Below, piece after piece: positions 1 through 15,340 of a stretch of 15,340 nt of DNA (position 1 is the stretch's first letter; each line of letters opens with the position of its first letter). A program made the position numbers and the translations under genes. Source of the DNA: a virus (lineage: Duplodnaviria > Heunggongvirae > Uroviricota > Caudoviricetes); IMG/VR virus record IMGVR_UViG_3300044765_000092, positions 222,679-238,018 of that record. One strand, given 5' to 3'. The notes beneath the pieces are model-generated. The model saw only the letters and a program-made list of their open reading frames with translations, was not told the origin of the DNA and searched no databases.

Positions 1-150
1 GCTTCGACTAGGCCGACAAGTACAGTGCCGCCCATACAGATCAAGAAGGCGAGCCCACAATCAGATAGCCAACGCAATGGCGCATCGACCATTCCGATGT
101 TTGATTCGTCCGATGGCTTCTTCTTGGCGATCAATTCAGGACTGTTCTAA
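1..150 (+). CDS. 3' end of an upstream gene (partial), possibly a tape-measure/gp29-like tail protein
   Basis: Frame 1 is open from base 1 (ASTRPTSTVPPIQIKKASPQ...TIPMFDSSDGFFLAINSGLF) to TAA at 148-150, which overlaps the next ATG (TAATG), suggesting translational coupling. Product guess rests on position and the Ser/Thr/Pro-rich tail only. Confidence 0.65.
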   Translation, partial: ASTRPTSTVPPIQIKKASPQSDSQRNGASTIPMFDSSDGFFLAINSGLF

Positions 151-1376
151 TGGACATCACAGCAGACGATGTTGGTCCGGCGGTGTACGGGCCCACGTTT
201 TCAAATAGGGCGGCTCGACTCAAGACCGGCACGTCTGCTGATGTCCTGTACTTGTTGCAAGCTGATCAAGAACAAGACTCGGTGTTGCGACTGATTCCAC
301 TGCTTCACGCACAGAAGAGTCTGAATCCGATTCATTCGACAGCCGGGATGGTGACCCTGGGTATCACATTTGTGATCGCAGCCTTTGCCATTGGGCGAAA
401 GCTGTTTGATCTGACTGACACCACGTCTGACGAACTGAACACTGATGTTAAACAGGCTGCGAGTGTAGAGACTAAACCTACTACGGGTAAGGTCACACCA
501 ATGGCCTTACCTCATACTGGTGAACAACAGCCAGCAGCAGCAACTGGCGGTCGGCCCTCTACTCGTCGCGGACCAAGTCGTCCTACACAGGACATCTTGG
601 ACATGATCAAGCGAGTGGCCTCGTCTTTGGGTGTTGACTATTCGGTACTGTACTCGATTGCGGGTGCTGAATCGGATTTCCGCGCCGGAGTCGCAGCTAC
701 AGGCAGTAAGGCGTTGGGTATGCTTCAGTTCATACCCTCTACCTGGAACTGGCTGTCTCAAAAGGTGTTTCCGTCTCTGCACTACAGTGCTGACGATCGA
801 ACAGACCCAGAGAAGTCTACAGTCATGGCTGCGCTGTATCTACGGATGATCCAACGCACATTGTCAGCTGCTCTAGGTCGTCAGCCAACGCTTGGCGAAC
901 TCTACACCGGGTACTTTCTGGGGCCTGATACTGCTGCTCGATTCTTCCGCATAATGCGCGATCATCCAAATGCGGCTGCCGCATTTGTGTTCCCACGTGA
1001 AGCACAAGCTAACCCGAACATCTTCTACGATGGCATTCGCCCCCGTTCATTTGTCGAAGTATTGTCACGTTTGAGTGGCCGGGTTGGTTCCTATTTGCGT
1101 GACGTGAGAGCCCTATCCTCGACGAGTGGTGCTGCTGCTCAGCAGCCAGCCATATCGTCGCCGGATCAGGAATTGCCGTTGCCCCAGGCCACTGCTACAA
1201 CGATCGAACTAGAAACGCCACCATCACCGAAAGCGTCGGCACCTAAACCACAAGCCAAACCTGTAGTTCGTGTAGACAAGGACTCGGCCAAGTCCACTGC
1301 ATCCGGAACAGGATCGGCTACTGACAAGACATATTTCCGTCGCAACGATCGTCTTTACTTTATCCCAGGTGGGTAG
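150..1376 (+). CDS. Virion-associated lytic transglycosylase (SLT-family domain), 408 aa
   Basis: SLT motifs: IAGAES (predicted catalytic Glu174), ALGMLQF, DPEKSTVMAALYL, LYTGYFLGP. Hydrophobic stretch GMVTLGITFVIAAFAIG near the N-terminus and Pro/Ala/Thr-rich flanks. AGGA 8 nt upstream of the ATG. Confidence 0.85.
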   Translation: MDITADDVGPAVYGPTFSNRAARLKTGTSADVLYLLQADQEQDSVLRLIPLLHAQKSLNPIHSTAGMVTLGITFVIAAFAIGRKLFDLTDTTSDELNTDVKQAASVETKPTTGKVTPMALPHTGEQQPAAATGGRPSTRRGPSRPTQDILDMIKRVASSLGVDYSVLYSIAGAESDFRAGVAATGSKALGMLQFIPSTWNWLSQKVFPSLHYSADDRTDPEKSTVMAALYLRMIQRTLSAALGRQPTLGELYTGYFLGPDTAARFFRIMRDHPNAAAAFVFPREAQANPNIFYDGIRPRSFVEVLSRLSGRVGSYLRDVRALSSTSGAAAQQPAISSPDQELPLPQATATTIELETPPSPKASAPKPQAKPVVRVDKDSAKSTASGTGSATDKTYFRRNDRLYFIPGG

Positions 1377-3787: not shown

Positions 3788-4483
3788 ATGCTCGACAACG
3801 TTTCTCAGATAGAGCCGCATGACTACGACGGCATTGTTTTCATCGGTACTGTAGTCGATAACAACGATCCACAAAAACTGGAACGTGTGCGGGTAACAAT
3901 CCCCAATCTGTTCCAGGGTGATACGTCGACCCTCCCGTGGTGCGCTCCGAAGTACGGACGCTTGCTCGCGTCCAATGGTGGTGCTGGGTCGTTCGGTGTC
4001 CCATCTATCGGCTCTACGGTGTTTGTGATCCTTCAGCAGGGTGACCCCAAGTTCCCTCTATACGTCGGAATGCCAGTCAACTCGTCGGGGCGTCCGGCTG
4101 AAGCTAGTGCCAACTACCCGAATCGTTACGGCTTTCATGATGAAGTCGGCAACATTTGGTACATCGACAAGACCAACGGTTCGCATATCATGCAGTTCAC
4201 GCATGCGAGCGGTAGCTTTTCGATGACGGTGGCAAACAATGGAGCGTGTACTGTCAATGCCAACAATGGTCTTACGATCAACGGCCCGGTAACGCACAAC
4301 GGTGATATGACGCACAACGGCAATACGAGCCAGAATGGGAACTACAGTCTGACCGGCACGTTGACGGCCAACGGACAGATCAAATCGCTGTCTGATGTCG
4401 TGGCCATCACCGTCAGTTTGCATGGACACCGTCACAATGCTGTCAAGGCTGGCTCTGATAACTCTGGACCTCCTAATCCATGA
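3788..4483 (+). CDS. Baseplate central spike (gp5 OB-fold + beta-helix + His apex; P2 gpV-type), 231 aa
   Basis: OB-fold signature GTVVDNNDPQKLERVRV..P.......LPWC.P....GSFGVPSIGSTVFV..QQGDP..PLYVG. Six-residue beta-helix repeats NGPVTH/NGDMTH/NGNTSQ/NGNYSL/TGTLTA/NGQIKS. C-terminal SLHGHRH.AVKAG..NSGPP apex. Confidence 0.9.
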   Translation: MLDNVSQIEPHDYDGIVFIGTVVDNNDPQKLERVRVTIPNLFQGDTSTLPWCAPKYGRLLASNGGAGSFGVPSIGSTVFVILQQGDPKFPLYVGMPVNSSGRPAEASANYPNRYGFHDEVGNIWYIDKTNGSHIMQFTHASGSFSMTVANNGACTVNANNGLTINGPVTHNGDMTHNGNTSQNGNYSLTGTLTANGQIKSLSDVVAITVSLHGHRHNAVKAGSDNSGPPNP

Positions 4484-4908
4484 CCTCCGCATCCGTTACC
4501 CAAACCCCAGACGTATCGATCACCGACACTCAGTGGTTGGACGTCAATACGCTGCTCGACGTCAATGGCAAGCCCGATCTCCTGCCAGGTGTTCAAGCCG
4601 TCAACAACAGCCTCTACAACCTGTTTCGATGCCACATCGGTGGACGTAGTGCCATCTTCGATCCGGAATACGGCACAGGCTTATACCTTCTGCTTCAGGA
4701 ACCGATCGACTACATCACTGCTGGCAAGATACAGATGTTCCTGATTCAGGCTATTCAGCGCTGGGAACCACGCATTCAGATAGATATGGGTCGGACGTCG
4801 ATCAAACCGGATGTGACAATTCCAGGATACGTCATCAGCATCTACTACACGCTGGTAGGTACTGGACAAGACGGCAACTACACAATCAACCTTTCGAACC
4901 GAGCGTAA
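4480..4908 (+). CDS. Baseplate wedge/sheath-initiator protein, gp25 / gpW-like, 142 aa
   Basis: AVNNSLYNLF....G.R..FDPEYG..L..LLQEP.......I.QAIQRWEPRI is the GPW_gp25 family pattern. ATGA overlap with the spike gene. Confidence 0.9.
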   Translation: MTSASVTQTPDVSITDTQWLDVNTLLDVNGKPDLLPGVQAVNNSLYNLFRCHIGGRSAIFDPEYGTGLYLLLQEPIDYITAGKIQMFLIQAIQRWEPRIQIDMGRTSIKPDVTIPGYVISIYYTLVGTGQDGNYTINLSNRA

Positions 4909-4911
4909 ATC

Positions 4912-6651
4912 ATGGTCACTACACTCCAACTTTCGACCGTCGCCCCTGACTTCGATGATCTGGCAAATCAGTTGACGAACGCGCTGTCGAATCAGCCGGC
5001 GTGGAAGGATCGGATTACCGGCGCGATGGGCACTACGCTCGTTCGAATGATCGCGGCTATCGGCGCCTATTCGCAGTACGCCATTGAGTCCGCGTATCAG
5101 GAGGCGTGGCCCGAATCTGCGAAGAACAAGACGACACTTTATGCAGCAGCCACGGCAATGGGTGTGCGATTTAATCGCAAGCTCCCAGCCTCTGTGCAGT
5201 GCTCACTTACAGCACCGTCGTCAATGATCATTCCGGTCAATAGTATCTTTGTTGGGGCCGGAACTTTCTGGTTCAACCGTACTCCACTGTCGGTGGGCGC
5301 CACTCCGATGGCGGCCACGCTGTATCAAGGGCAAATCGTTTCGACCACGATCAATGGCATCGGCACCGACTTTCAAGCCTATGTGACTCCGGAGGACAGT
5401 TTCCAAGTCAGCGATGAAGACGTGTTCATCACCGTCAATTCGGTCAGTATCCCGCTTTCTGGTGACGGTCTGTGGAACTACCCGAGTTTGCCCGGTGCCC
5501 AAGACTTCACACTGCCAAGCGGTCAAGCCATTTTCCTGTTCGGTAATTCACTGTACGGAACGCTGCCACAGCAGAGTGACGTTGTGTCCATTGTCTACGC
5601 GACAACCAGTGGTGCTGACGGCAATAATGTGCTGACGCTCAATAAGTCGGTGAACTTGCAGTCGAACACGTCGGTGACCGGCACATTCACCACGAATCCA
5701 AGTGGTGGTGCCAACGAAACTGATCCTCTCCAATACAAGACACTTACTCCGGCGCTCTTTGGTTCGTTCAATTCGAGTGTGACTGCCAGTCAGTACAAGC
5801 GTCTGCCCCTCACCTATCCTGGAGTGGTTGACGCACAAACATTCAGTCAGCGCGAGCTCAACCCTAACGCGCTAACCTACATGAATGTGATCACCGCTAG
5901 CATACTGCCGCAGAGCTCGTGGTCAACCACTGACTGGAACAACTTTGTGTCGTGGTATCAGGCGCGTACCATGTATTCGACACGCGTGATTCGTCAGGAT
6001 CCAACAGCCTACAACGTAACGATCAACGCTGATATCTACTGTTCGAATCTGAGCAATCTGCCTGACATTCAGAACAAGGTACAGACCGCACTCAACGCGT
6101 TGTTTGCGCCTCGCCAGGGCATCCTTGGCCTCGACGTGTATAGGTCAGACATCATCCGGGCGATCGAGAACGCTGACTCGAACATCGAGTATGTGGTGCT
6201 CAATACACCGGCGGCCGACATCGTGGTAAGTAACTTGACGATGCCTGCACCCAACGTCATTGCCACAGTAAACATAGACGACCTGCATCCATCAGTCATC
6301 ACACAGAATCAGACCTACACTTATGCAATTTCGGCTGTGACCCCCAACGGTACTACGAGTCCAACCAATTGGACAACGATTGTGGCGCCCCCTGGGGAGA
6401 TAGCAAATGGATGGTGGTTCCAATTGACCTGGACTCCTCTGGCGGGTGCCACGTCATACAATATCTACGGTCGGCAGTCACCTAGCAGCCTTGGTTTGCT
6501 CGGTTCAACATCGGGCACGCTTTTTGTTGATACTGGTCAGAACACGCCTAGTGGTGGTGTTCCGGTGGTCGGTACTCTGGGGGTTAGCTATCCTCATCTG
6601 TCGTCTACAACATTGAACATGCACTATAGCACTCGGAGCATCAAGCTATGA
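4912..6651 (+). CDS. Baseplate wedge protein gp6 / gpJ-like with an extra Fn3/Ig-like domain near the C-terminus, 579 aa
   Basis: DFDDL..QL.......W.D...G..G..L, ESA.......AA..MG....RK.PA, FGN..YG.LP....V.IVY.TTSGADGN, GGANET and VTASQYK motifs of the gp6/Baseplate_J family. Located after gp25. Confidence 0.85.
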   Translation: MVTTLQLSTVAPDFDDLANQLTNALSNQPAWKDRITGAMGTTLVRMIAAIGAYSQYAIESAYQEAWPESAKNKTTLYAAATAMGVRFNRKLPASVQCSLTAPSSMIIPVNSIFVGAGTFWFNRTPLSVGATPMAATLYQGQIVSTTINGIGTDFQAYVTPEDSFQVSDEDVFITVNSVSIPLSGDGLWNYPSLPGAQDFTLPSGQAIFLFGNSLYGTLPQQSDVVSIVYATTSGADGNNVLTLNKSVNLQSNTSVTGTFTTNPSGGANETDPLQYKTLTPALFGSFNSSVTASQYKRLPLTYPGVVDAQTFSQRELNPNALTYMNVITASILPQSSWSTTDWNNFVSWYQARTMYSTRVIRQDPTAYNVTINADIYCSNLSNLPDIQNKVQTALNALFAPRQGILGLDVYRSDIIRAIENADSNIEYVVLNTPAADIVVSNLTMPAPNVIATVNIDDLHPSVITQNQTYTYAISAVTPNGTTSPTNWTTIVAPPGEIANGWWFQLTWTPLAGATSYNIYGRQSPSSLGLLGSTSGTLFVDTGQNTPSGGVPVVGTLGVSYPHLSSTTLNMHYSTRSIKL

Positions 6652-7406: not shown

Positions 7407-8777
7407 ATGTCAAACTCCGGTTTCGTAGTTACCGACGTCGGTAACTCGGCGGCAGCGGCCGCCACTACTAGCGGTCCATATGTTCACATCACGCAGTTCA
7501 AGGTTGGCACTGGCGTCAATTACACGCCAACCCGCGCTGATACTGATCTACACGGGTCGGTCCTGTACACAGGCACTCCCACCACGTTTTCACTTATCTC
7601 AACGACGTTGCTCGAGATAGTGCTGACAATGGATGCGTCAGTAGGGCCGTTCAATTTTGGCGAGATCGGTCTGTATCTGGCGAGTGGTCAGCTGTATGCT
7701 CTCTGTTCGTTTACCAGTCTGCAGGAGAAGGTCAACACAGTGGGTGCGCAGGTCGGCAATACCTGGACAATTCGTGCCCGACTGACATTGGCGCAAGCGC
7801 CATACACTGCGCAGATCGCGATCACCAACACGATGGGGATGCTCGAATGTGCGAACTGGCAGTCGCTGGCAATTCCATCAGGTCAGCAATCCGGTGCGAA
7901 CTGCGCAATCGTTCATGATGACACAGAAGATCTCAAGCCGGTGTTCGTGGTCAAGCGCGACACCGTTCGATGGGAACCGGTTGGATACACAACTGCTCTG
8001 GTGGCCAACACTGCTGATTCGGGTGCTAGTGTCAGCACCGGGGGTCTGACACACCCGAGCCTGTCGGCCCTGCAAATGACATGGTCCCCTGGGAACAATC
8101 TGTACCAGCGTTATCTCGTTCGATTCTCTGACGGTGAAATCCGCAAGATCACGAGCAAGAGTGGTACGACAGTCAATTGGGCAGTACCAACGACCGGATC
8201 TGCAGCGGGGGTTTTTACCATCTTCACTGCAGATCCACTGATCAACGCACAGTCAGTGCCTCAGCAAGTTGGTGAGATCGCATATTTCATGCGATCGAGT
8301 CCGCCCACTGGCTGGTTGGAACTCAATGGACAAACCTTGAGTCGTACAACCTACGCAGAACTCTTTGCTAACTGCGGTTCTCAGTGTGGACCTGGTGATG
8401 GCAGCACGACGTTTACGCTACCTGATCTGCGTGGTGAGTTCCTCCGAGCGTGGGATCACGGTCGTGGTGTAGACGGCAGCCGCACGCTAGGATCTTGGCA
8501 GGATTGGGGAACCGGTGCGCCAAAGACCACAAGTGTCAACCGCATTACTGGCGATGGCTCGATCGGCTCACTGACCAACGGTACGAGTAATCCATCACAC
8601 GTCGGCTTCCTACGTGCATCAAAGTCCGGTGAAGGCATCACGCCCACTGGTTTCGATGGTAACGGATCAGGGAACGAACCTGATGTGTGGAACGTCGCGA
8701 CTGGTGACGCAGAAACCCGGCCACGCAACAGTGCATGGCTCATCTGTGTGCGAGCGTTCACCACCTACACATCTTGA
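7407..8777 (+). CDS. Tail fibre with N-terminal baseplate-attachment domain and phage tail collar domain, 456 aa
   Basis: N-terminus VVTDVG.......HITQFKVGTG ... GPFNFGEIGLY resembles the P2 gpH-type anchor (DUF3751-like). Collar motif VGEIAYF....PPTGWLELNGQTLSRTTYAELF....GPGDGSTTFTLPDLRGEFLRAWDHGRGVD, and terminal ETRPRN.AWLICVR. Confidence 0.9.
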   Translation: MSNSGFVVTDVGNSAAAAATTSGPYVHITQFKVGTGVNYTPTRADTDLHGSVLYTGTPTTFSLISTTLLEIVLTMDASVGPFNFGEIGLYLASGQLYALCSFTSLQEKVNTVGAQVGNTWTIRARLTLAQAPYTAQIAITNTMGMLECANWQSLAIPSGQQSGANCAIVHDDTEDLKPVFVVKRDTVRWEPVGYTTALVANTADSGASVSTGGLTHPSLSALQMTWSPGNNLYQRYLVRFSDGEIRKITSKSGTTVNWAVPTTGSAAGVFTIFTADPLINAQSVPQQVGEIAYFMRSSPPTGWLELNGQTLSRTTYAELFANCGSQCGPGDGSTTFTLPDLRGEFLRAWDHGRGVDGSRTLGSWQDWGTGAPKTTSVNRITGDGSIGSLTNGTSNPSHVGFLRASKSGEGITPTGFDGNGSGNEPDVWNVATGDAETRPRNSAWLICVRAFTTYTS

Positions 8778-8783
8778 TCTAGT

Positions 8784-8814
8784 GAGTGATAGCGACTGAG
8801 CTGCTACTCTTTTT
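8784..8814 (+). terminator. Possible weak intrinsic terminator between the two fibre genes
   Basis: GAGTGATAGC-gactga-GCTGCTACTC can form a 10-position stem (7 Watson-Crick pairs, 2 G-U, 1 mismatch) followed by TTTTT. Confidence 0.4.
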
Positions 8815-8829
8815 GGATAAGAAACCACT

Positions 8830-11800
8830 ATGCTTTTTCAGATCACAAGCCAAGGTCGCGCTATGCTCGACGCGAACCCAACTAGTCTGCACATCACGCA
8901 GATCAAGTTTGGTTCCGCATTCGGATATACTCTGCCGGTTAATCCAACAGGTTTGACCGGTTCGGTAGTTTATACGATCAACACGGACATTCTTCCGTTG
9001 GTCGTCGATCCGAATACGCTGCGCTACACACAGATTTTGGATACGACCATTGGTCCGTTCCAGTTCGGTGAGTGCGCGTTCTACGCAGGCTCTACACTGT
9101 TTGCTGTTGGCGTCAGCGGCTCTCTTATCTCCAAAGTAGCCGACAGTCAACAAGGTCCAGGCAATGTCTACCGGCTGGATCTGTTTACTGATGCAATCCC
9201 TGGGCAGCGTTATGCAGTGGCTGAACTCGGGACTAACGCTCAGGGTAGTTTCCCTCGCGTTCCGGTCCCTGACCTGCTGACACCTCCAGCACTGAACGAC
9301 AACAATGCCTATATCATCTACGGTCTGACGCAGAACGACATTCCGTACATGGCGTTTGCTGATCCTACTGGCAAGTGGTCGTTCACGACCAAGCCAGTGG
9401 TGGCTTATACCGGAACGGTGGCGAGTACCGGCAGTTACGGCCTGTTGGCCGATGCGATTTCTGGTTCGTTTGACGGCGACATCACGCAGTGCGTTCTGCA
9501 ATTCACTTCTGGTGACTTGCGTGGATACTGCCGTCAGATCGTATCGTTCAGTTCGCCAAAGAGCTGGGGGTGGAACACACCGCTCCCGATTCTGCCGGCC
9601 GTTGGTGACCAATTCATCATCAACGCACCTGCCACCAGTGGATATGGTGGCTCGTCGTCGGTGAGCAGTGTTCCGGCCGACATGCCATATGCGTTGTGGC
9701 GTTCGGACCCAGGACCTGCCACCGATCTTGACTATGTGGCGAACGACCCAGAGGAACCCACGGACCCGAATGCTCCGTATGGTTTCCACATCGCTTCGGT
9801 GTCGACGGCGCCTACTCTCCAGGATGGTGACCACGGTCTCGAACACGGCGTCTTTGACGCAACGTACAACGGCTACTACCAATACGCGGATCAGTTCCTG
9901 CTCAAGCCGGACAACGACGGCCTGTACGCGATCGAAGCGGCTATTCAGGGCAACCTGATGTCGCGATCTGGCGAGATTGCTTCGAACACGGTTGACGAGT
10001 ACACGATGACCTATCACGTGTGCCCGATCGTGCCGGCTGGCAGTAATTCGGAAATTGACTACATCAATCCGGTTGCTGTCTTTAGCACTACTCGCCGTTG
10101 CTACCGTGACAATGGTTCTTATGTGTCGTTTGACGCGACGACCGTCACTCGCTTGACGGGTGGCACTACCTACGCCATCCTGATCAAGCACGATCTGGGT
10201 AATCGGCCGAGTGATCCAGCGAACGAGAACAAGCTGTCGGTTACGAACACCCAAGTCCGAGTCTCTAGGCTCGTCGGCTTTAGTGCCACGGGGCTTGTGT
10301 CTGGAATCATCGACAGTGGTTCAGGTGGTGGCAGCAACGGTACTACCCAGGAAATCACTGACCTGACTCAACGTGTTACTGCGCTGGAAACTGAACTAAC
10401 CTCTAATCTGGTTACGCTCAGCTACCTGCAGAACACGTCGGTACCGTCGATTCAAAACACGGCACAGAACGCACAGACTGCAGTTCTGCAGGAAATCAAT
10501 GATCGCACAGCCGATGTCAATGCCCTGCAAGGATCGATCAACGACCTGATCACGCAGGGGAACGATTACAACACACGAATCAACGATAACGCAACGGCGA
10601 TCGTTAATCTGGGTGATAGTGTTAATCAGGATGTTGCCACTCTCAATGCTAGCCTGACCTCGATCGACACTGCACGGGCCGATGGGGATGCAGCCTTGGC
10701 AGGGCAGATTACGACCCTGACGGCCACGGTCAACAGCAATCAGCAGAATCTATCGTCTCAATTGACGACTGAGTCTGCTACTCGTGCGAGCGCGGATTCT
10801 GCTCTGTCGACGCAGATCACGACTCTGTCCACCACGGTCACCAACAACTACAGCTCGCTTAACTCTGCTATCCAGCAGGTTGATGCTACGCACACGACAG
10901 CTGAGTCGACGCTCGCCACACAGATCAATAATCTGACGTCGACGGTCAACACCAATAACACGAATCTGCAGTCGTCGATCAATTCGCTGAGTCAGACTCA
11001 AACCACAAACTACAACTCGCTCAGTGACCAGATCACGACTCTGACTTCGACGGTAGCTAACGACCAAACGGCGTTGACTGCAGCGATTAATAGTGAGGCC
11101 AGCACTCGTGCGACGGCCGACTCGGCTAACGCAGCGCAGACTGCTCTGGTTCAAGCACAGTTGCAGACTGAGAACTTGGTCTTCAACCCGATGTTCCAGC
11201 CTGCTGGCGGTGGCTGGCCGTCTGGCACGTTCTATTCGGCAACCGATGCTGCTGTTCCGATCGGAGCTCCTAGTGGCTATGTGTTGTATAGCAACAGTGC
11301 GAACTGCTGGTCCGGTGGTACGAGCATCACAACTGGAACTCGGAGTCCGGTGACTCCTAGTGATACGCTTGAACTCGAAGTCTGGGTAGGGATCAAGACC
11401 ACATTTACGGAGAATGCTGGTCTCCAGATCGGTTACCTGTCTCAGACGGGTACTGATCTTGGTGTTCCAACGTACACAACATTGTCGGTTCCGGGTTCGG
11501 CGGCTGGCTGGCAGAAACTGTCGATCACGGTAACGATCCCAAGCAACGCCTACTTCATTGTTCCAAACCTCTGGATCAGTAAGTCTGGTGGATCGACTGC
11601 TGCGTGCTTCTTTGCTCTGCCGTCGGTACGTCGCCAATCCGGGGCGATGGCGTCGGTTCAACAACAGTTGACTTCCGCAGTTGATTCGTCGGGCACGGCC
11701 ATCAGCCAGTACACGATCAAGACCTACGCTCGATCGACTGATGGTAAGTTGGCGATCGCTGGTATCGGTCTTGCATCCCAGGCGTCAGATCAGACAGGCG

Positions 11801-14800
11801 TTGCTCAGTCGGAGATCATTCTCGAGGCTAATCGGCTGCTTCTGACTTCGCCTAACACGCTGGAAGGAACAACCACTCCACTGCTAGTCGCTGGTCAGGT
11901 CAACGGTGTCAACACTGTAGTCATTCCATCGACAATCATTGGTGACCAGACGGTTGGAGCACAGGTTCTGATCGATGGTGCAGTCACCACTCGCTCGATT
12001 GCTACAGGGGCTGTGACCGCGACCCAATTGGCGGCCGACAGCGTGAACGCTGGATCGCTCAGTGTCTTGCCCTCAGGCGGTGCTGGGAACTTGGTTCAGA
12101 ACGGGTTGGACCGAGATTCTAGCGGCTGGTCAAGCGTTGAAGGGGCCAATAACGCTACTTGGCAAACTGCTACAGGCTCGCTTCCGGGTTGTTTGCAATT
12201 CAATCCAGGATCGGGTAGCGGTGGCTACGGCTTCAAGGCATTCCCGATCACTGCGGGTGAAACCTATCTAGTTCGTCTGCGATTCACACGTGGATCGGGT
12301 ACTTCTGGTACGATGACCATTCGTATCAACTGGTCAGCGAGCATGCCCAGCGGTGGATACGTGACCTCGACGAACAAGACGTCGAGTAGCGATGTTACGA
12401 CCTTGACGCTCAGTACCTACACGGCGGGTAGTCAACAACTCTACGAAGGAACGGTAATCGCACCTACGGGTGTCAACTTTGCGACGTTTGAAGTCTACTT
12501 CAACGCCACGGGTGCGTCAGCCACAGCCAGCTTCTGGGGTCCTGAGTTCATCACGTTCCAATCAGGTGTGTTCATCAAGAATGGAACGATTACTGCTCAA
12601 CAGATCGACAGCCGGGGCCTCAGCATCAAGGACGCAAGCGGCAACGTGATCCTGGCGGCAGGTACTCCGTTGTCGAGCTCGAACATCAACCCCTCGTCGG
12701 GTTGGCTGAACAGCAATATCACGTTGTCGTCGAGTGGTGCGCTCAACGGCGCTGGTGGAGGTCAGGTATCACTTTCAGGTCTGGGCCAACACGTATTTCG
12801 TGTTGTATCTTGTGGCAACAACGCGACTACTTCTGTACCAGTATCTCCTGGTCTATACAAAGACGGCTCACAAGCCTATGGTGCAGTACGAAGCTACAAC
12901 ATGGCACGAATCCGTCGTTCAGACGCGACGGTAACATTCCAACAGACGTACGACGTGTTTGGCAATGGTGCGACGACCAGTGGTCGTAACTCTGCAACTC
13001 TAGCGGCCGACCTCAACGCCACTGGTGCTGATTCTATTGTCGTCGTCTGGACCTACGACGAGCCACAGGCAAATCGCTTGACCAACGGTCTCGATACTGC
13101 GATGTATCGTTGTGGTGCCAGCCCCGCGTGCTTTGGCAGCCCTCAGTTCCAGTATCGTGGTGCATACATCCTTATCGGTATTCCAGGTGTTGGTCAGGGT
13201 AACGGTGTCGAAGCCTATCAAGGTAGTATAGCTGCTGACCCAAATGCGTGGTGTGATGTTTCGTTCGGCGTCACGTCGGGCACGATCAGTGGGGTGAGTG
13301 CTGGATACACCCCGCGCTCGCTCGGTGATTTCAGCTACACAGGCGACCTGAACGCCACCTATGGAGCCCATGTCGGCACTACGCTGCTTGACTCCTACGG
13401 TAATGTCGTTCCAACTGGCTTGGTCCAGAACAATTTGGTCGATGCGTCGTGGTGGCAAGTAGGTGTCAGCCCTACTCCGCGATGGGCAAGCAATCAAAAC
13501 GGTGGATCAGACTCGTTTGCTAACGGCACTGGCTGGAGTGGTGAATCCGGTGTTTTCTGGCGTGCAGTACAAGGACCGGCTGGTAACAATGGCGGTGGTT
13601 GGAATCCTGGCCCTTCGGGTAACGGTAACTGGTTCCCAGTCGATACGACAAAGACCTATCGGTTTATCTGTCCGATTTATCCTGGTCCATCGACTCACAT
13701 GTATTGGGGGATATCAGGTAACACAGTCTGTGATCTTAATACGAGCAACTTGAACGGGAATCCCTACTTCGCCAATGAGAGTGGCGCTAGTCTAGGCCCA
13801 AATAAGTGGTACCTCCTCGTCGGTTATGTGTTTCCGGCTGGATCAACGACTAACGCACATAGTGGCGCTGGTATTTATGATCTATCGACTGGGGCGCTTC
13901 GTGAAGGCGGCTTGAATTACTGCTGGGCAGCTGGAACACAGAATAGTGGGACCCGCGCCTATCAATTCTATGCCAATAGCGGGGAAGTGTGCTGGTTCGG
14001 CAAGCCGATGGTTCATGTAGTCAACGGCTCGGAACCGACCCTGGATTCGATTCTGTCGTCGGGTTCGATCAGTGCTCGCAACTCGATTAACAGTGGAAAC
14101 GCGTCGACATACATTGCCAATGCTGCAATTCAGTCGGCGATGATCCAGGACTTGCGGACTGCCAACTACTCGGAGGATGGGTCAGGCAATCCAACAGCCG
14201 GTGCAAAACTGTCGTCTACCGGCACAGCCATCAAGGTGGCGAGCGGTAGCTTCCAGCTAGGCACTGTGATCTTCACCGACTATTGGGCACGTCTGGTTCA
14301 GGGTCTGGATGGTGGTTCGGGTCTCCCAATTATCATCCGAGGCAACATCGACACCAGTGTCCGTGGTGGTGCCCCGAACATCGCATGCTTGTCCGTCTAC
14401 ACGTGGGAATCGCAGGTTCTAAACAGCAACTTCCAGCAGGTCTACCACAAGTTCACTATCACACCGTCCACGTACACAACGTACTCGGACAATGTGGACT
14501 TGATGACTCAGATCCACGCACAGTTCTTCCAAGGTACAGCGTATAGCTCTCCGTTCACGGAGTTCTACCTACCGTGCCCAAGTCGAACATACGACCGTGT
14601 TGCTGGTCAAGTTAACGGAGCGTGGCATTGGGGTTGGCGATTCCAACTCACTGGTGGCGGCGCCGTGGGTCCAGGTGTTCAGCTCGAAAACAATAACCAG
14701 TACAGCGGCTACCTACGCATTCGTATCGCTAATGTGTATGGTTGGTCGGCTACCCAAGACTTTGGGCCGAACCCGAACCGTGGCGGACAACTACCATACG

Positions 14801-15270
14801 CGACAATCACTGGTTCCTCGGGTTCTTCTGGTGGTGGCGGTGGTTCGTCTGGTGGTGCGTGCCCTGCTCCATGGGTGAAGATCAAGCTGATCAATGGCAC
14901 ATATGTTGAAGCTGACAACATCTACAACGGCGCCGTGGTTGCGGCGGTGAACGATACAACCCTTGAACCAATCCCAGAAGGTGGTGTGATCGAACATGTG
15001 AATCGCATCTGGAGCCCCCGTTGGCGAATCACACTCACTGATGGCACGGCCACTGAATGGTCGGAGAATCACCGAATTGCAGTTGTCAATAGCGGATGGG
15101 TTGCCGTGCAGGATATCTGCCCCGGTGACCAGCTAGTGGCCCAAAAAGAGGCGATTGTCCAATCAGTAGTGTTTGTCGGCGATGGGCAGGTTATCAGCTT
15201 CCTTGTCAAGGGTGCTGGTACCTACTTTGGTGACGATCTGCTGTGCCACAACACGAAGATGCTTCCGTAA
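8830..15270 (+). CDS. Giant multidomain tail fibre / host-specificity protein with C-terminal Hint (intein-like) domain, 2146 aa
   Basis: N-terminal anchor paralogous to 7407..8777. Coiled-coil shaft. SQYTIK....G..AIAGIGLA.......QSEIILEANR resembles DUF1983/lambda J C-terminal region. CBM-like NL..NP.F/W modules, an ILEI-like domain and a terminal Hint domain. Confidence 0.88.
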   Translation: MLFQITSQGRAMLDANPTSLHITQIKFGSAFGYTLPVNPTGLTGSVVYTINTDILPLVVDPNTLRYTQILDTTIGPFQFGECAFYAGSTLFAVGVSGSLISKVADSQQGPGNVYRLDLFTDAIPGQRYAVAELGTNAQGSFPRVPVPDLLTPPALNDNNAYIIYGLTQNDIPYMAFADPTGKWSFTTKPVVAYTGTVASTGSYGLLADAISGSFDGDITQCVLQFTSGDLRGYCRQIVSFSSPKSWGWNTPLPILPAVGDQFIINAPATSGYGGSSSVSSVPADMPYALWRSDPGPATDLDYVANDPEEPTDPNAPYGFHIASVSTAPTLQDGDHGLEHGVFDATYNGYYQYADQFLLKPDNDGLYAIEAAIQGNLMSRSGEIASNTVDEYTMTYHVCPIVPAGSNSEIDYINPVAVFSTTRRCYRDNGSYVSFDATTVTRLTGGTTYAILIKHDLGNRPSDPANENKLSVTNTQVRVSRLVGFSATGLVSGIIDSGSGGGSNGTTQEITDLTQRVTALETELTSNLVTLSYLQNTSVPSIQNTAQNAQTAVLQEINDRTADVNALQGSINDLITQGNDYNTRINDNATAIVNLGDSVNQDVATLNASLTSIDTARADGDAALAGQITTLTATVNSNQQNLSSQLTTESATRASADSALSTQITTLSTTVTNNYSSLNSAIQQVDATHTTAESTLATQINNLTSTVNTNNTNLQSSINSLSQTQTTNYNSLSDQITTLTSTVANDQTALTAAINSEASTRATADSANAAQTALVQAQLQTENLVFNPMFQPAGGGWPSGTFYSATDAAVPIGAPSGYVLYSNSANCWSGGTSITTGTRSPVTPSDTLELEVWVGIKTTFTENAGLQIGYLSQTGTDLGVPTYTTLSVPGSAAGWQKLSITVTIPSNAYFIVPNLWISKSGGSTAACFFALPSVRRQSGAMASVQQQLTSAVDSSGTAISQYTIKTYARSTDGKLAIAGIGLASQASDQTGVAQSEIILEANRLLLTSPNTLEGTTTPLLVAGQVNGVNTVVIPSTIIGDQTVGAQVLIDGAVTTRSIATGAVTATQLAADSVNAGSLSVLPSGGAGNLVQNGLDRDSSGWSSVEGANNATWQTATGSLPGCLQFNPGSGSGGYGFKAFPITAGETYLVRLRFTRGSGTSGTMTIRINWSASMPSGGYVTSTNKTSSSDVTTLTLSTYTAGSQQLYEGTVIAPTGVNFATFEVYFNATGASATASFWGPEFITFQSGVFIKNGTITAQQIDSRGLSIKDASGNVILAAGTPLSSSNINPSSGWLNSNITLSSSGALNGAGGGQVSLSGLGQHVFRVVSCGNNATTSVPVSPGLYKDGSQAYGAVRSYNMARIRRSDATVTFQQTYDVFGNGATTSGRNSATLAADLNATGADSIVVVWTYDEPQANRLTNGLDTAMYRCGASPACFGSPQFQYRGAYILIGIPGVGQGNGVEAYQGSIAADPNAWCDVSFGVTSGTISGVSAGYTPRSLGDFSYTGDLNATYGAHVGTTLLDSYGNVVPTGLVQNNLVDASWWQVGVSPTPRWASNQNGGSDSFANGTGWSGESGVFWRAVQGPAGNNGGGWNPGPSGNGNWFPVDTTKTYRFICPIYPGPSTHMYWGISGNTVCDLNTSNLNGNPYFANESGASLGPNKWYLLVGYVFPAGSTTNAHSGAGIYDLSTGALREGGLNYCWAAGTQNSGTRAYQFYANSGEVCWFGKPMVHVVNGSEPTLDSILSSGSISARNSINSGNASTYIANAAIQSAMIQDLRTANYSEDGSGNPTAGAKLSSTGTAIKVASGSFQLGTVIFTDYWARLVQGLDGGSGLPIIIRGNIDTSVRGGAPNIACLSVYTWESQVLNSNFQQVYHKFTITPSTYTTYSDNVDLMTQIHAQFFQGTAYSSPFTEFYLPCPSRTYDRVAGQVNGAWHWGWRFQLTGGGAVGPGVQLENNNQYSGYLRIRIANVYGWSATQDFGPNPNRGGQLPYATITGSSGSSGGGGGSSGGACPAPWVKIKLINGTYVEADNIYNGAVVAAVNDTTLEPIPEGGVIEHVNRIWSPRWRITLTDGTATEWSENHRIAVVNSGWVAVQDICPGDQLVAQKEAIVQSVVFVGDGQVISFLVKGAGTYFGDDLLCHNTKMLP
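10675..11106 (+). repeat. Four tandem 108-nt (36-aa) degenerate coiled-coil repeats in the giant fibre, plus a partial fifth from 11107
   Basis: Units begin at 10675, 10783, 10891 and 10999, each with Q-I-[TN]-[TN]-L-[TS]-x-T-V at the same offset (QITTLTATV, QITTLSTTV, QINNLTSTV, QITTLTSTV). RAxxD recurs at the start of units 1, 2 and 5. Confidence 0.9.
14860..15252 (+). other. Hint (intein-like / BIL-type) domain, residues C2011-N2141 of the giant fibre, with no homing endonuclease
   Basis: Block A CPAPWVKIKLINGTYVEADNIYNGAVV, block B TEWSENHRI, GWVAVQDICPGDQLV, block F/G VISFLVKGAGTYFGDDLLCHN, followed by T. Confidence 0.88.
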
Positions 15271-15277
15271 TATCAGC

Positions 15278-15327
15278 GGGGTGGGGGGGGGGGCCCCCCC
15301 CCCCCCCCCCCACCAAAAAAACCCCCA
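15278..15327. other. Low-complexity G/C homopolymer tract with inverted symmetry at the window end
   Basis: GGGGT, G11, C18, ACC, A7, then C5. GGT-G11 is the reverse complement of C11-ACC. Could be a distorted hairpin or a low-quality contig end. Confidence 0.5.
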
Positions 15328-15340
15328 CAAAGGACGTAAA

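Follow-up and report, generated by a model that had tools for sequence, protein, structure and literature searches.

The locus considered here raises the question of what a Hint domain is doing at the very end of a giant phage tail fibre. The window, a stretch of 15,340 nucleotides (nt), is the end of the 238,018-nt IMG/VR virus record IMGVR_UViG_3300044765_000092 (completeness estimate 99%), and its last gene encodes a tail fibre whose final 136 residues are made up of the Hint domain and a short C-terminal flank (Table 1). The best-supported reading, which we regard as probable, is that the fibre ends in a Hint domain resembling the type-A bacterial intein-like (BIL) domains and that this domain would actively excise itself after translation. 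The basis of this mechanism is fold, homology, residue conservation and gene context, from which we infer the chemical steps. The original prediction, made from the letters of the window, was a self-processing virion adhesin, and both the invariance of the catalytic residues and the virion fibre context support it as the best reading.

Fold, homology and residue conservation

The Hint sequence of this fibre is too divergent for Pfam and NCBIfam, and the domain is therefore detected only through profiles and structure. In an exhaustive search with phmmer, 1.84 billion cluster representatives yielded 210 proteins at E ≤ 1e-3, 73 of them at E ≤ 1e-10. When a family profile, i.e. a 54-sequence alignment of the Hint region, was searched against PDB chains, the top match was the C. 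thermocellum BIL 2LWY (E = 5.9e-13), and matches were also found to the NpuDnaB intein (E = 1e-11), the gp41-1 intein (E = 6e-10), the Hint of 8W20, a large toxin-like protein that bears a pretoxin HINT (PT-HINT) (E = 6e-10), and the Tetrahymena BIL2 (E = 3e-6); Hedgehog chains were weaker (E = 0.07-0.12). Among the 54 family members, Pfam at E ≤ 1 gives matches to Intein_splicing for 42 and to PT-HINT (PF07591) for 27, and some distant relatives of the family pass the PF07591 cut-off. Thus, the profile search that the original prediction proposed is silent for this sequence itself and positive for its relatives.

The AlphaFold2 (AF2) model of the Hint domain, built from the 54-sequence alignment, has a predicted local distance difference test score (pLDDT) of 93 and a predicted template-modelling score (pTM) of 0.87. 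Searched with Foldseek, the model superposes on NpuDnaB, gp41-1, BIL2 and the C. thermocellum BIL with template-modelling (TM) scores of 0.81-0.85, and more than 50 intein, BIL or Hedgehog chains are found at TM 0.8-0.85 (prob 1.00). The independent VIA structure search (all-against-representatives) gave Z 18-19, with a maximum of 19.2, over 123-140 residues (19.2 for BIL2, 19 for mini-inteins, 18.2 for 2LWY and 17.5 for Hedgehog). Taken together, the profile E-values and the superposition of the AF2 model place the Hint assignment far beyond chance, and the modelled C-terminal domain is confirmed as a genuine horseshoe-like all-beta Hint fold. The Hint/intein-like domain first proposed for this fibre is thereby borne out (profile E 6e-13 to 1e-9, together with the pLDDT, TM and Z values above). 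Its positions and residues, namely the linker, Cys1, S-E-N-H, His-Asn, T-K-M-L-P and the stop, are all correct on translation, and so are the two atypical features that had been singled out, Cys-Pro at positions 1-2 (Cys2011 followed by Pro) and Ser2123 at the block-F position, which is Asp in class-1 inteins. In the two-domain AF2 model of residues 1745-2146, the linker has pLDDT < 50 and the beta-sandwich that precedes it (model residues 102-238, hereafter the tip domain) is confidently predicted.

To compare residues across the family, 159 non-redundant full-length domains, down to ~27% identity, were extracted with a hidden Markov model from close relatives; the family comprises at least 210 clusters at 50% identity. 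Cys1 and the terminal His-Asn are present in all 159 domains, and the N-terminal C-P-A-P motif is nearly as constant (Pro2 in 149, Pro4 in 156, followed by Trp5 in 122). The 54-sequence alignment shows no exception for the block-B His or for the T of the T-Y motif that precedes the last strand, and the Y of this motif is almost invariant. On the linker side, Gly occupies position −3 in 122/159 and position −2 in 130/159, and position −1 is variable. This survey of terminal-Hint phage proteins, which the original prediction had also proposed, shows that the residues predicted to serve both cuts are kept.

The residue after the terminal Asn (+1) behaves differently: it is T in 27 domains, A in 24, L in 22, I in 19, V in 17, K in 17, M in 9, Y in 7 and S in 5, with others in the remainder. 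Ser or Thr is found in just 32/159 and Cys in none, so that 127/159 are non-nucleophilic. Thr is the commonest +1 residue in the subfamily closest to this fibre, and relatives at 57-63% identity to it have Phe, Tyr, Leu or Ile. Thus, the Thr that the original prediction pointed out as one of the nucleophiles of canonical splicing is present here (Thr2142) but is not conserved. Lys, which that prediction had passed over, is in contrast found at +2 in 138/159 domains and within +1 to +4 in 158/159. After the Asn, 97 domains have a tail of no more than 7 residues, 21 one of 8-15 and 33 one of more than 60; in 118/159 the Hint is terminal (4-15 residues after Asn), and the proteins with a terminal Hint are long and fibre-like (median 950 residues, up to 3017). 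As a control, 14 canonical PT-HINTs were taken from 121 Myxococcota genomes. These begin with C-F-x-A-G-T, have C-terminal regions of 11-230 residues (84-230 in 11/14), and carry Lys within +1 to +4 in 6/14, a small set in which several of the Lys-bearing members are redundant. From these patterns, selection appears to act on both the acyl shift at the N-terminus and the cyclisation of Asn at the C-terminus, and on the nearby Lys, but not on the canonical +1 nucleophile.

Proposed self-processing and alternative explanations

In the mechanism that we consider probable, Cys2011, aided by block-B His2081, would attack the carbonyl of Ala2010 (N-to-S acyl shift), so that a thioester between Ala2010 and Cys2011, where the flexible Gly linker ends, would carry the entire fibre. 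Asn2141, aided by His2140, would cyclise and cut the Hint from T-K-M-L-P. The thioester could then be resolved in two ways: hydrolysis would leave a fibre ending ...G-G-A, and attack by a tail amine would join ...G-G-A to the tail; the 131-residue Hint would be released either way. The attacking amine could be the alpha-amine newly freed by the cut, which is the proposal for type-A BILs, or, following BIL2, the epsilon-amine of Lys2143. In this particular protein, Thr2142 could additionally permit ordinary class-1 splicing. Joining to the tail seems at least as likely as plain hydrolysis, and we slightly favour ligation because Asn cyclisation appears selected, the +1 position is free and the nearby Lys is nearly invariant. 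The conserved Lys may serve as the nucleophile, as an anchor that holds the freed peptide, or as a catalytic helper. A bolder proposal, in our view rather doubtful, is that the subfamily with the signature C-P-A-P-W...H-N-x-K would act as an ATP-independent ligase, converting the thioester at the fibre C-terminus into an isopeptide to the conserved Lys, which could be that of the cis tail or one of a different virion protein, for example the ~170-residue product of the downstream gene (see below).

Several points weigh against self-excision. Scanned as a single sequence, the Hint region of this fibre has no significant match in Pfam (none at E ≤ 1), NCBIfam or PHROGs, and the best match of the single-sequence PDB search, the NpuDnaB mini-intein, is not significant (E = 0.16). 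Pro at position 2 and Ser in place of the block-F Asp are atypical of efficient inteins. The invariance of the catalytic residues fits an active enzyme but does not tell which product is made; for ligation, the five-residue peptide that Asn cyclisation liberates would need to remain bound; and the benefit of a transient Hint to the phage is unexplained. Of the roles that the original prediction had listed for the domain, self-removal is, broadly, the most likely, but the accompanying chaperone or trimerisation role is unsupported, and the invariant His-Asn implies that the C-terminal cut matters too.

The thioester might instead serve as a donor for coupling in trans, an option that the original prediction had also listed, whereby the fibre C-terminus would be passed to an amine on a second virion protein, on the ~170-residue protein, or on the host surface, giving a covalent joint. 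BIL2, which conjugates a ubiquitin-like domain to lysines and is among the best structural matches, makes Lys isopeptides and transfers to different substrates (PMC8616854); the flexible Gly tether before Cys1 and the conserved ~170-residue gene, with an invariant Lys (K89), after every tip-plus-Hint gene are in line with such a donor. The same holds for the gpI-like tail assembly protein that this Hint also terminates and that does not bind receptors. However, the near-invariant Lys lies in cis, just past the Asn, which favours an intramolecular acceptor, and a pure trans-transfer would have no need for the invariant Asn cyclisation. Furthermore, a linear thioester would hardly last in free virions until a host is reached, and the downstream gene is absent after the gpI-like Hint genes, so that its product may be an ordinary fibre chaperone or distal fibre part. 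By analogy with BIL2, coupling in trans is thus conceivable but unlikely.

We consider it quite unlikely that the domain is a canonical class-1 splicing element that acts via Thr2142 and yields a fibre ending ...G-G-A-T-K-M-L-P with a normal peptide bond. For this member the reaction is chemically possible, as Cys1, the block-B His, His-Asn and Thr at +1 are all present and Thr prevails at +1 in the closest subfamily, but the +1 distribution across the family, including the aromatic and aliphatic residues of the 57-63% identical relatives, speaks against it, and so does the Ser at block F, where class-1 inteins have the Asp that coordinates branch formation. As a selected function, the +1-dependent splicing that had been listed as a further option is ruled out by the same counts (Ser or Thr in 32/159, no Cys).

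Finally, it is very improbable that the domain is retained as a non-catalytic one, be it a structural or binding tip or the relic of a tail-fibre-type polymorphic toxin minus its toxin cassette: toxins that combine a tail-fibre-like stalk with HINT and toxin have been described (PMC3482391), 33/159 domains have more than 60 residues after the Hint and this sequence falls under the Pfam thresholds, but Cys1, the block-B His and His-Asn stay invariant down to ~27% identity even though surface positions are free to change, most domains have the short tail, and the Myxococcota PT-HINTs (C-F-x-A-G-T, mostly with 84-230-residue toxins) show a clearly different pattern.

Gene context and distribution

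The fibre gene is the final gene of a myovirus-type baseplate and fibre module. The genes 5' of it match PHROGs for the baseplate hub, the wedge (gp25-like and gp6-like) and a 456-residue collar-type tail fibre; given these neighbours, its product is reasonably read as a virion fibre. The fibre protein itself has Pfam and PHROG matches to an ILEI-like domain, a coiled-coil and, weakly, a tail-fibre PHROG, and homologues of the gene are named 'predicted phage tail protein', with PF13550. The source virus is a soil jumbo phage; 94% of the sequence words of 14300-15340 are present in two soil or rhizosphere metagenome runs, and none of the runs sharing words of this segment is listed as coming from RNA. 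At the start of the baseplate module (150-1376 of the window) lies a gene for a 408-residue protein with a transglycosylase-like segment (phrog_4067, phrog_3201), probably a tail lysin.

Table 1 Features of the fibre C-terminus and of the adjoining record junction. Positions are those of the window unless stated otherwise.
Feature	Position	Strand	Basis or remark
Giant tail-fibre gene, 2146 residues	8830..15270	+	Open reading frame (ORF) list, translation
Last fibre domain, beta-sandwich (tip domain), ~residues 1846-1982	14365..14775	+	AF2 model, structure search
Gly/Ser linker GSSGSSGGGGGSSGGA, 16 residues (1995-2010), ends G-G-A; N-extein side of scissile bond	14812..14859	+	Translation
Hint domain, Cys2011-Asn2141, 131 residues	14860..15252	+	Profiles, AF2, structure search
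Cys2011 (Cys1)	14860-14862	+	Translation; followed by Pro-Ala-Pro-Trp
Block-B His2081, in S-E-N-H	15070-15072	+	Translation
T-Y motif, T2131/Y2132	within Hint, 14860..15252	+	Alignment
His2140-Asn2141, end of Hint	15247-15252	+	Translation
C-flank T-K-M-L-P, five residues (Thr2142 to Pro)	15253..15267	+	Translation, family statistics
Lys2143, conserved C-flank residue	15256-15258	+	Family statistics
Stop TAA, genuine	15268..15270	+	End position kept in homologues; synteny across record junction
Record end	15273..15340	.	15273-15283 (11 nt) identical to first 11 nt of record
Gene for conserved ~170-residue protein	record positions 54-563		Across record end/start junction from window end; ATG at 54; homologues

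Because the 11 nt that follow the fibre gene repeat the beginning of the record, the record is circularly closed and runs into the gene for the ~170-residue protein. The first 53 nt of the record contain a clean 14-bp hairpin, after which the ATG follows at position 54; the run of G and the run of C at 15284-15311 are probably a degraded copy of this hairpin, an assembly artefact. Homologues of the ~170-residue gene lie 10-60 nt 3' of a Hint-ending fibre gene in 23/23 related viral loci with enough flank. The protein has an N-terminal A-L-A-N-E-A-R-R motif and invariant K89 and W152, and searches of Pfam, PHROGs and the ESM Atlas gave no lead. In a complex prediction of tip plus Hint with this protein, the score was 0.26, where the mark is 0.32, a result that is neutral as to binding. 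Participation in the chemistry is no more likely than a role as an ordinary chaperone or distal fibre part, because the gene goes with the tip-domain cassette and not with the Hint as such. The next gene (record positions 854-1948) is a 364-residue ORF with an N-terminal H-N-S-L-T-G-L-Q-G-G ... Y-H-L. A weak PHROG link between the Hint and phrog_8610, a 270-residue protein encoded two genes downstream in relatives, was considered and dropped, as hhalign did not confirm it (probability 0.6%).

The tip domain matches only generic FN3/Ig-like sandwiches (VIA Z 7-8). Among its complete homologues (378-3017 residues), 52/52 carry the Hint, and their N-terminal parts vary in length and in precomputed Pfam domains. 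The family is spread over jumbo-phage-type metagenomic contigs, lambda-like prophages, and marine and faecal contigs. In lambda-like prophages of Myxococcus, Corallococcus and Pyxidicoccus, the cassette of tip domain, linker, Hint, x-K tail and ~170-residue gene follows the J gene; in the same prophages, a gpI-like tail assembly protein also ends in Hint and x-K tail, without tip domain or ~170-residue gene. Since two tail genes of these prophages bear it, the Hint is a portable end-module of tail proteins. The NCBI names of the prophage proteins are 'Hint domain-containing protein' and 'tail assembly protein'. In one Pyxidicoccus prophage (L053), the lambda-like tail-tip module has the order M, L, K, I, J and the Hint ends are in the genes at 4116-5435 and 7949-10063; the gene after J in this type of module encodes 704 residues, and the same module is found in loci L052, L054 and L055.

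A tblastn search of 50,697 deposited phage records with three family Hints found no annotated fibre with the module, only true inteins in terminases and one unannotated scaffold. The latter, the faecal phage scaffold MT835519.1, is the sole deposited phage record found with the module: its 734-residue protein (647-2851) ends in a divergent family Hint with a Cys-Val-Thr-Thr start, His-Asn-Ile-Lys and an eight-residue tail. The metagenomic entries P0087, P0131, P0109, P0137, P0089 and P0074 (at least P0087 is marine, from Tara) have two to three tandem related Hints each, of the form C-P-D-P ... S-H-N-K, with spacers of 14-40 residues; processing of such tandem Hints might release short peptides.

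Comparison with known systems

In a full-text literature search, Hint or BIL domains at phage fibre ends were not found described; the closest description was of polymorphic toxins with stalk, HINT and toxin (PMC3482391). What is new is the viral context, a conserved one, in which a Hint of the BIL/PT-HINT type is found, the new points being the Lys signature, the tip domain as an obligatory companion, the conserved downstream gene with the record junction, and the occurrence in lambda-like prophages. For annotation, such fibres would best be read as precursors, with a mature receptor-binding end predicted to lie ~136 residues before the end of the ORF. A small terminal Hint with its five-residue C-flank might also serve as a self-cleaving or ligating tag.

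On its sequence features, the domain is classed as a type-A-BIL-like, putative autoprocessing module and not as a canonical splicing intein or a pretoxin Hint, because Cys1 and His-Asn are kept, the +1 position is free, a Lys is near and the domain is mostly terminal. The N-terminal nucleophile Cys2011 and block-B His2081 are those of the Hint superfamily. Type-A BILs have a C-terminal His-Asn without a +1 nucleophile and give predominantly cleavage products, and they can splice if Asn cyclisation frees an amine that then attacks the N-terminal thioester (PMC4031507). The phage family has His-Asn throughout, at the family level its +1 nucleophile is not obligatory (this member has Thr), and its profile is most similar to 2LWY (E = 5.9e-13), with which the phage Hint shares the fold, Cys1, the block-B His, the H/x-T-Y motif before the last strand and the C-terminal His-Asn. 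Type-A BILs and the phage Hint are also alike in that a +1 nucleophile is not obligatory, a homing endonuclease is absent and the domain lies outside conserved enzyme motifs (PMC4031507). They differ in that the phage Hint starts with C-P-A-P-W, whereas a canonical BIL starts with C-F/V-x-x-G-T; the phage Hint lies at the extreme C-terminus, with 4-15 residues beyond it and a near-invariant Lys at +2; and it is found on phage tail proteins, in association with a single tip domain and a single downstream gene, whereas BILs are found on secreted bacterial proteins.

Pretoxin HINTs (PF07591) share with the phage Hint the position at the end of a long filamentous protein and presumed chain cutting, and polymorphic toxins combine tail-fibre-like stalks or repeats with HINT and a C-terminal toxin (PMC3482391). 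In contrast, the phage Hint is followed by five residues, with neither toxin nor immunity gene, in a virion baseplate and fibre operon. A PF07591 search of the phage's own record gave no match. The pretoxin assignment was therefore rejected: the PF07591 score falls short of the cut-off, no toxin follows, the stop is conserved and the next gene is a separate conserved ORF. The concern of the original prediction that the stop might be an error, with the ORF continuing into a toxin-like domain, was dismissed as well, because 118/159 domains end 4-15 residues past the Asn and the downstream synteny extends across the record junction.

Inteins interrupt conserved host proteins, need Cys, Ser or Thr at +1 and restore the host protein, and they often carry a homing endonuclease. 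Mini-inteins (Npu/Ssp DnaB, gp41-1) are top structural matches and share the catalytic residues; the phage Hint, however, has no C-extein protein to restore. A canonical class-1 intein was rejected, since the +1 residue is unconserved, only five residues follow, no host protein would be restored and 131 residues leave no room for an endonuclease. Thus, the view that the domain is neither a mobile intein nor a pretoxin Hint is upheld. A Hedgehog-type Hint is followed by a sterol-recognition or adduct region and does not end in Asn cyclisation; this candidate was discarded because His-Asn is present, no such region follows and Hedgehog chains are weaker matches.

BIL2, from the Tetrahymena thermophila BUBL locus (PDB 6Y75/6TMM), shares the fold with the phage Hint at a sequence identity of 12-14%. 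It forms an isopeptide between the C-terminus of the N-extein and a Lys epsilon-amine, which may belong to the C-flank or to another protein (PMC8616854, section 2.4). BIL2 is eukaryotic, with ubiquitin-like domains on both flanks, and is a precedent for the role of the conserved phage Lys, whose nucleophilicity is proposed by analogy. The combination of an invariant His-Asn, a free +1 position and a fixed Lys bears on whether BIL-type amine ligation, possibly isopeptide-forming, occurs in viruses; should the ligase proposal be true, the fibre tip would be covalently capped or coupled, a viral counterpart of the BIL2-type 'splicing-mediated conjugation'.

To our knowledge, the self-cleaving C-terminal modules of phage fibres known so far are the peptidase S74 chaperone domains, as in endosialidase and the T5 L-shaped fibre. 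A review of jumbo phages names only S74 (PMC7824862). S74 is not among the Pfam and PHROG matches of the whole fibre, and the structural matches of the domain are all Hint. Like the phage Hint in the reading proposed here, S74 is a C-terminal, self-removing fibre module, but the analogy is one of role only: S74 is trimeric and uses a Ser-Lys dyad, with a fold and chemistry unrelated to Hint. If the phage Hint is active, it would represent a second, chemically distinct solution, beside S74, for the self-cleavage of tail fibres.

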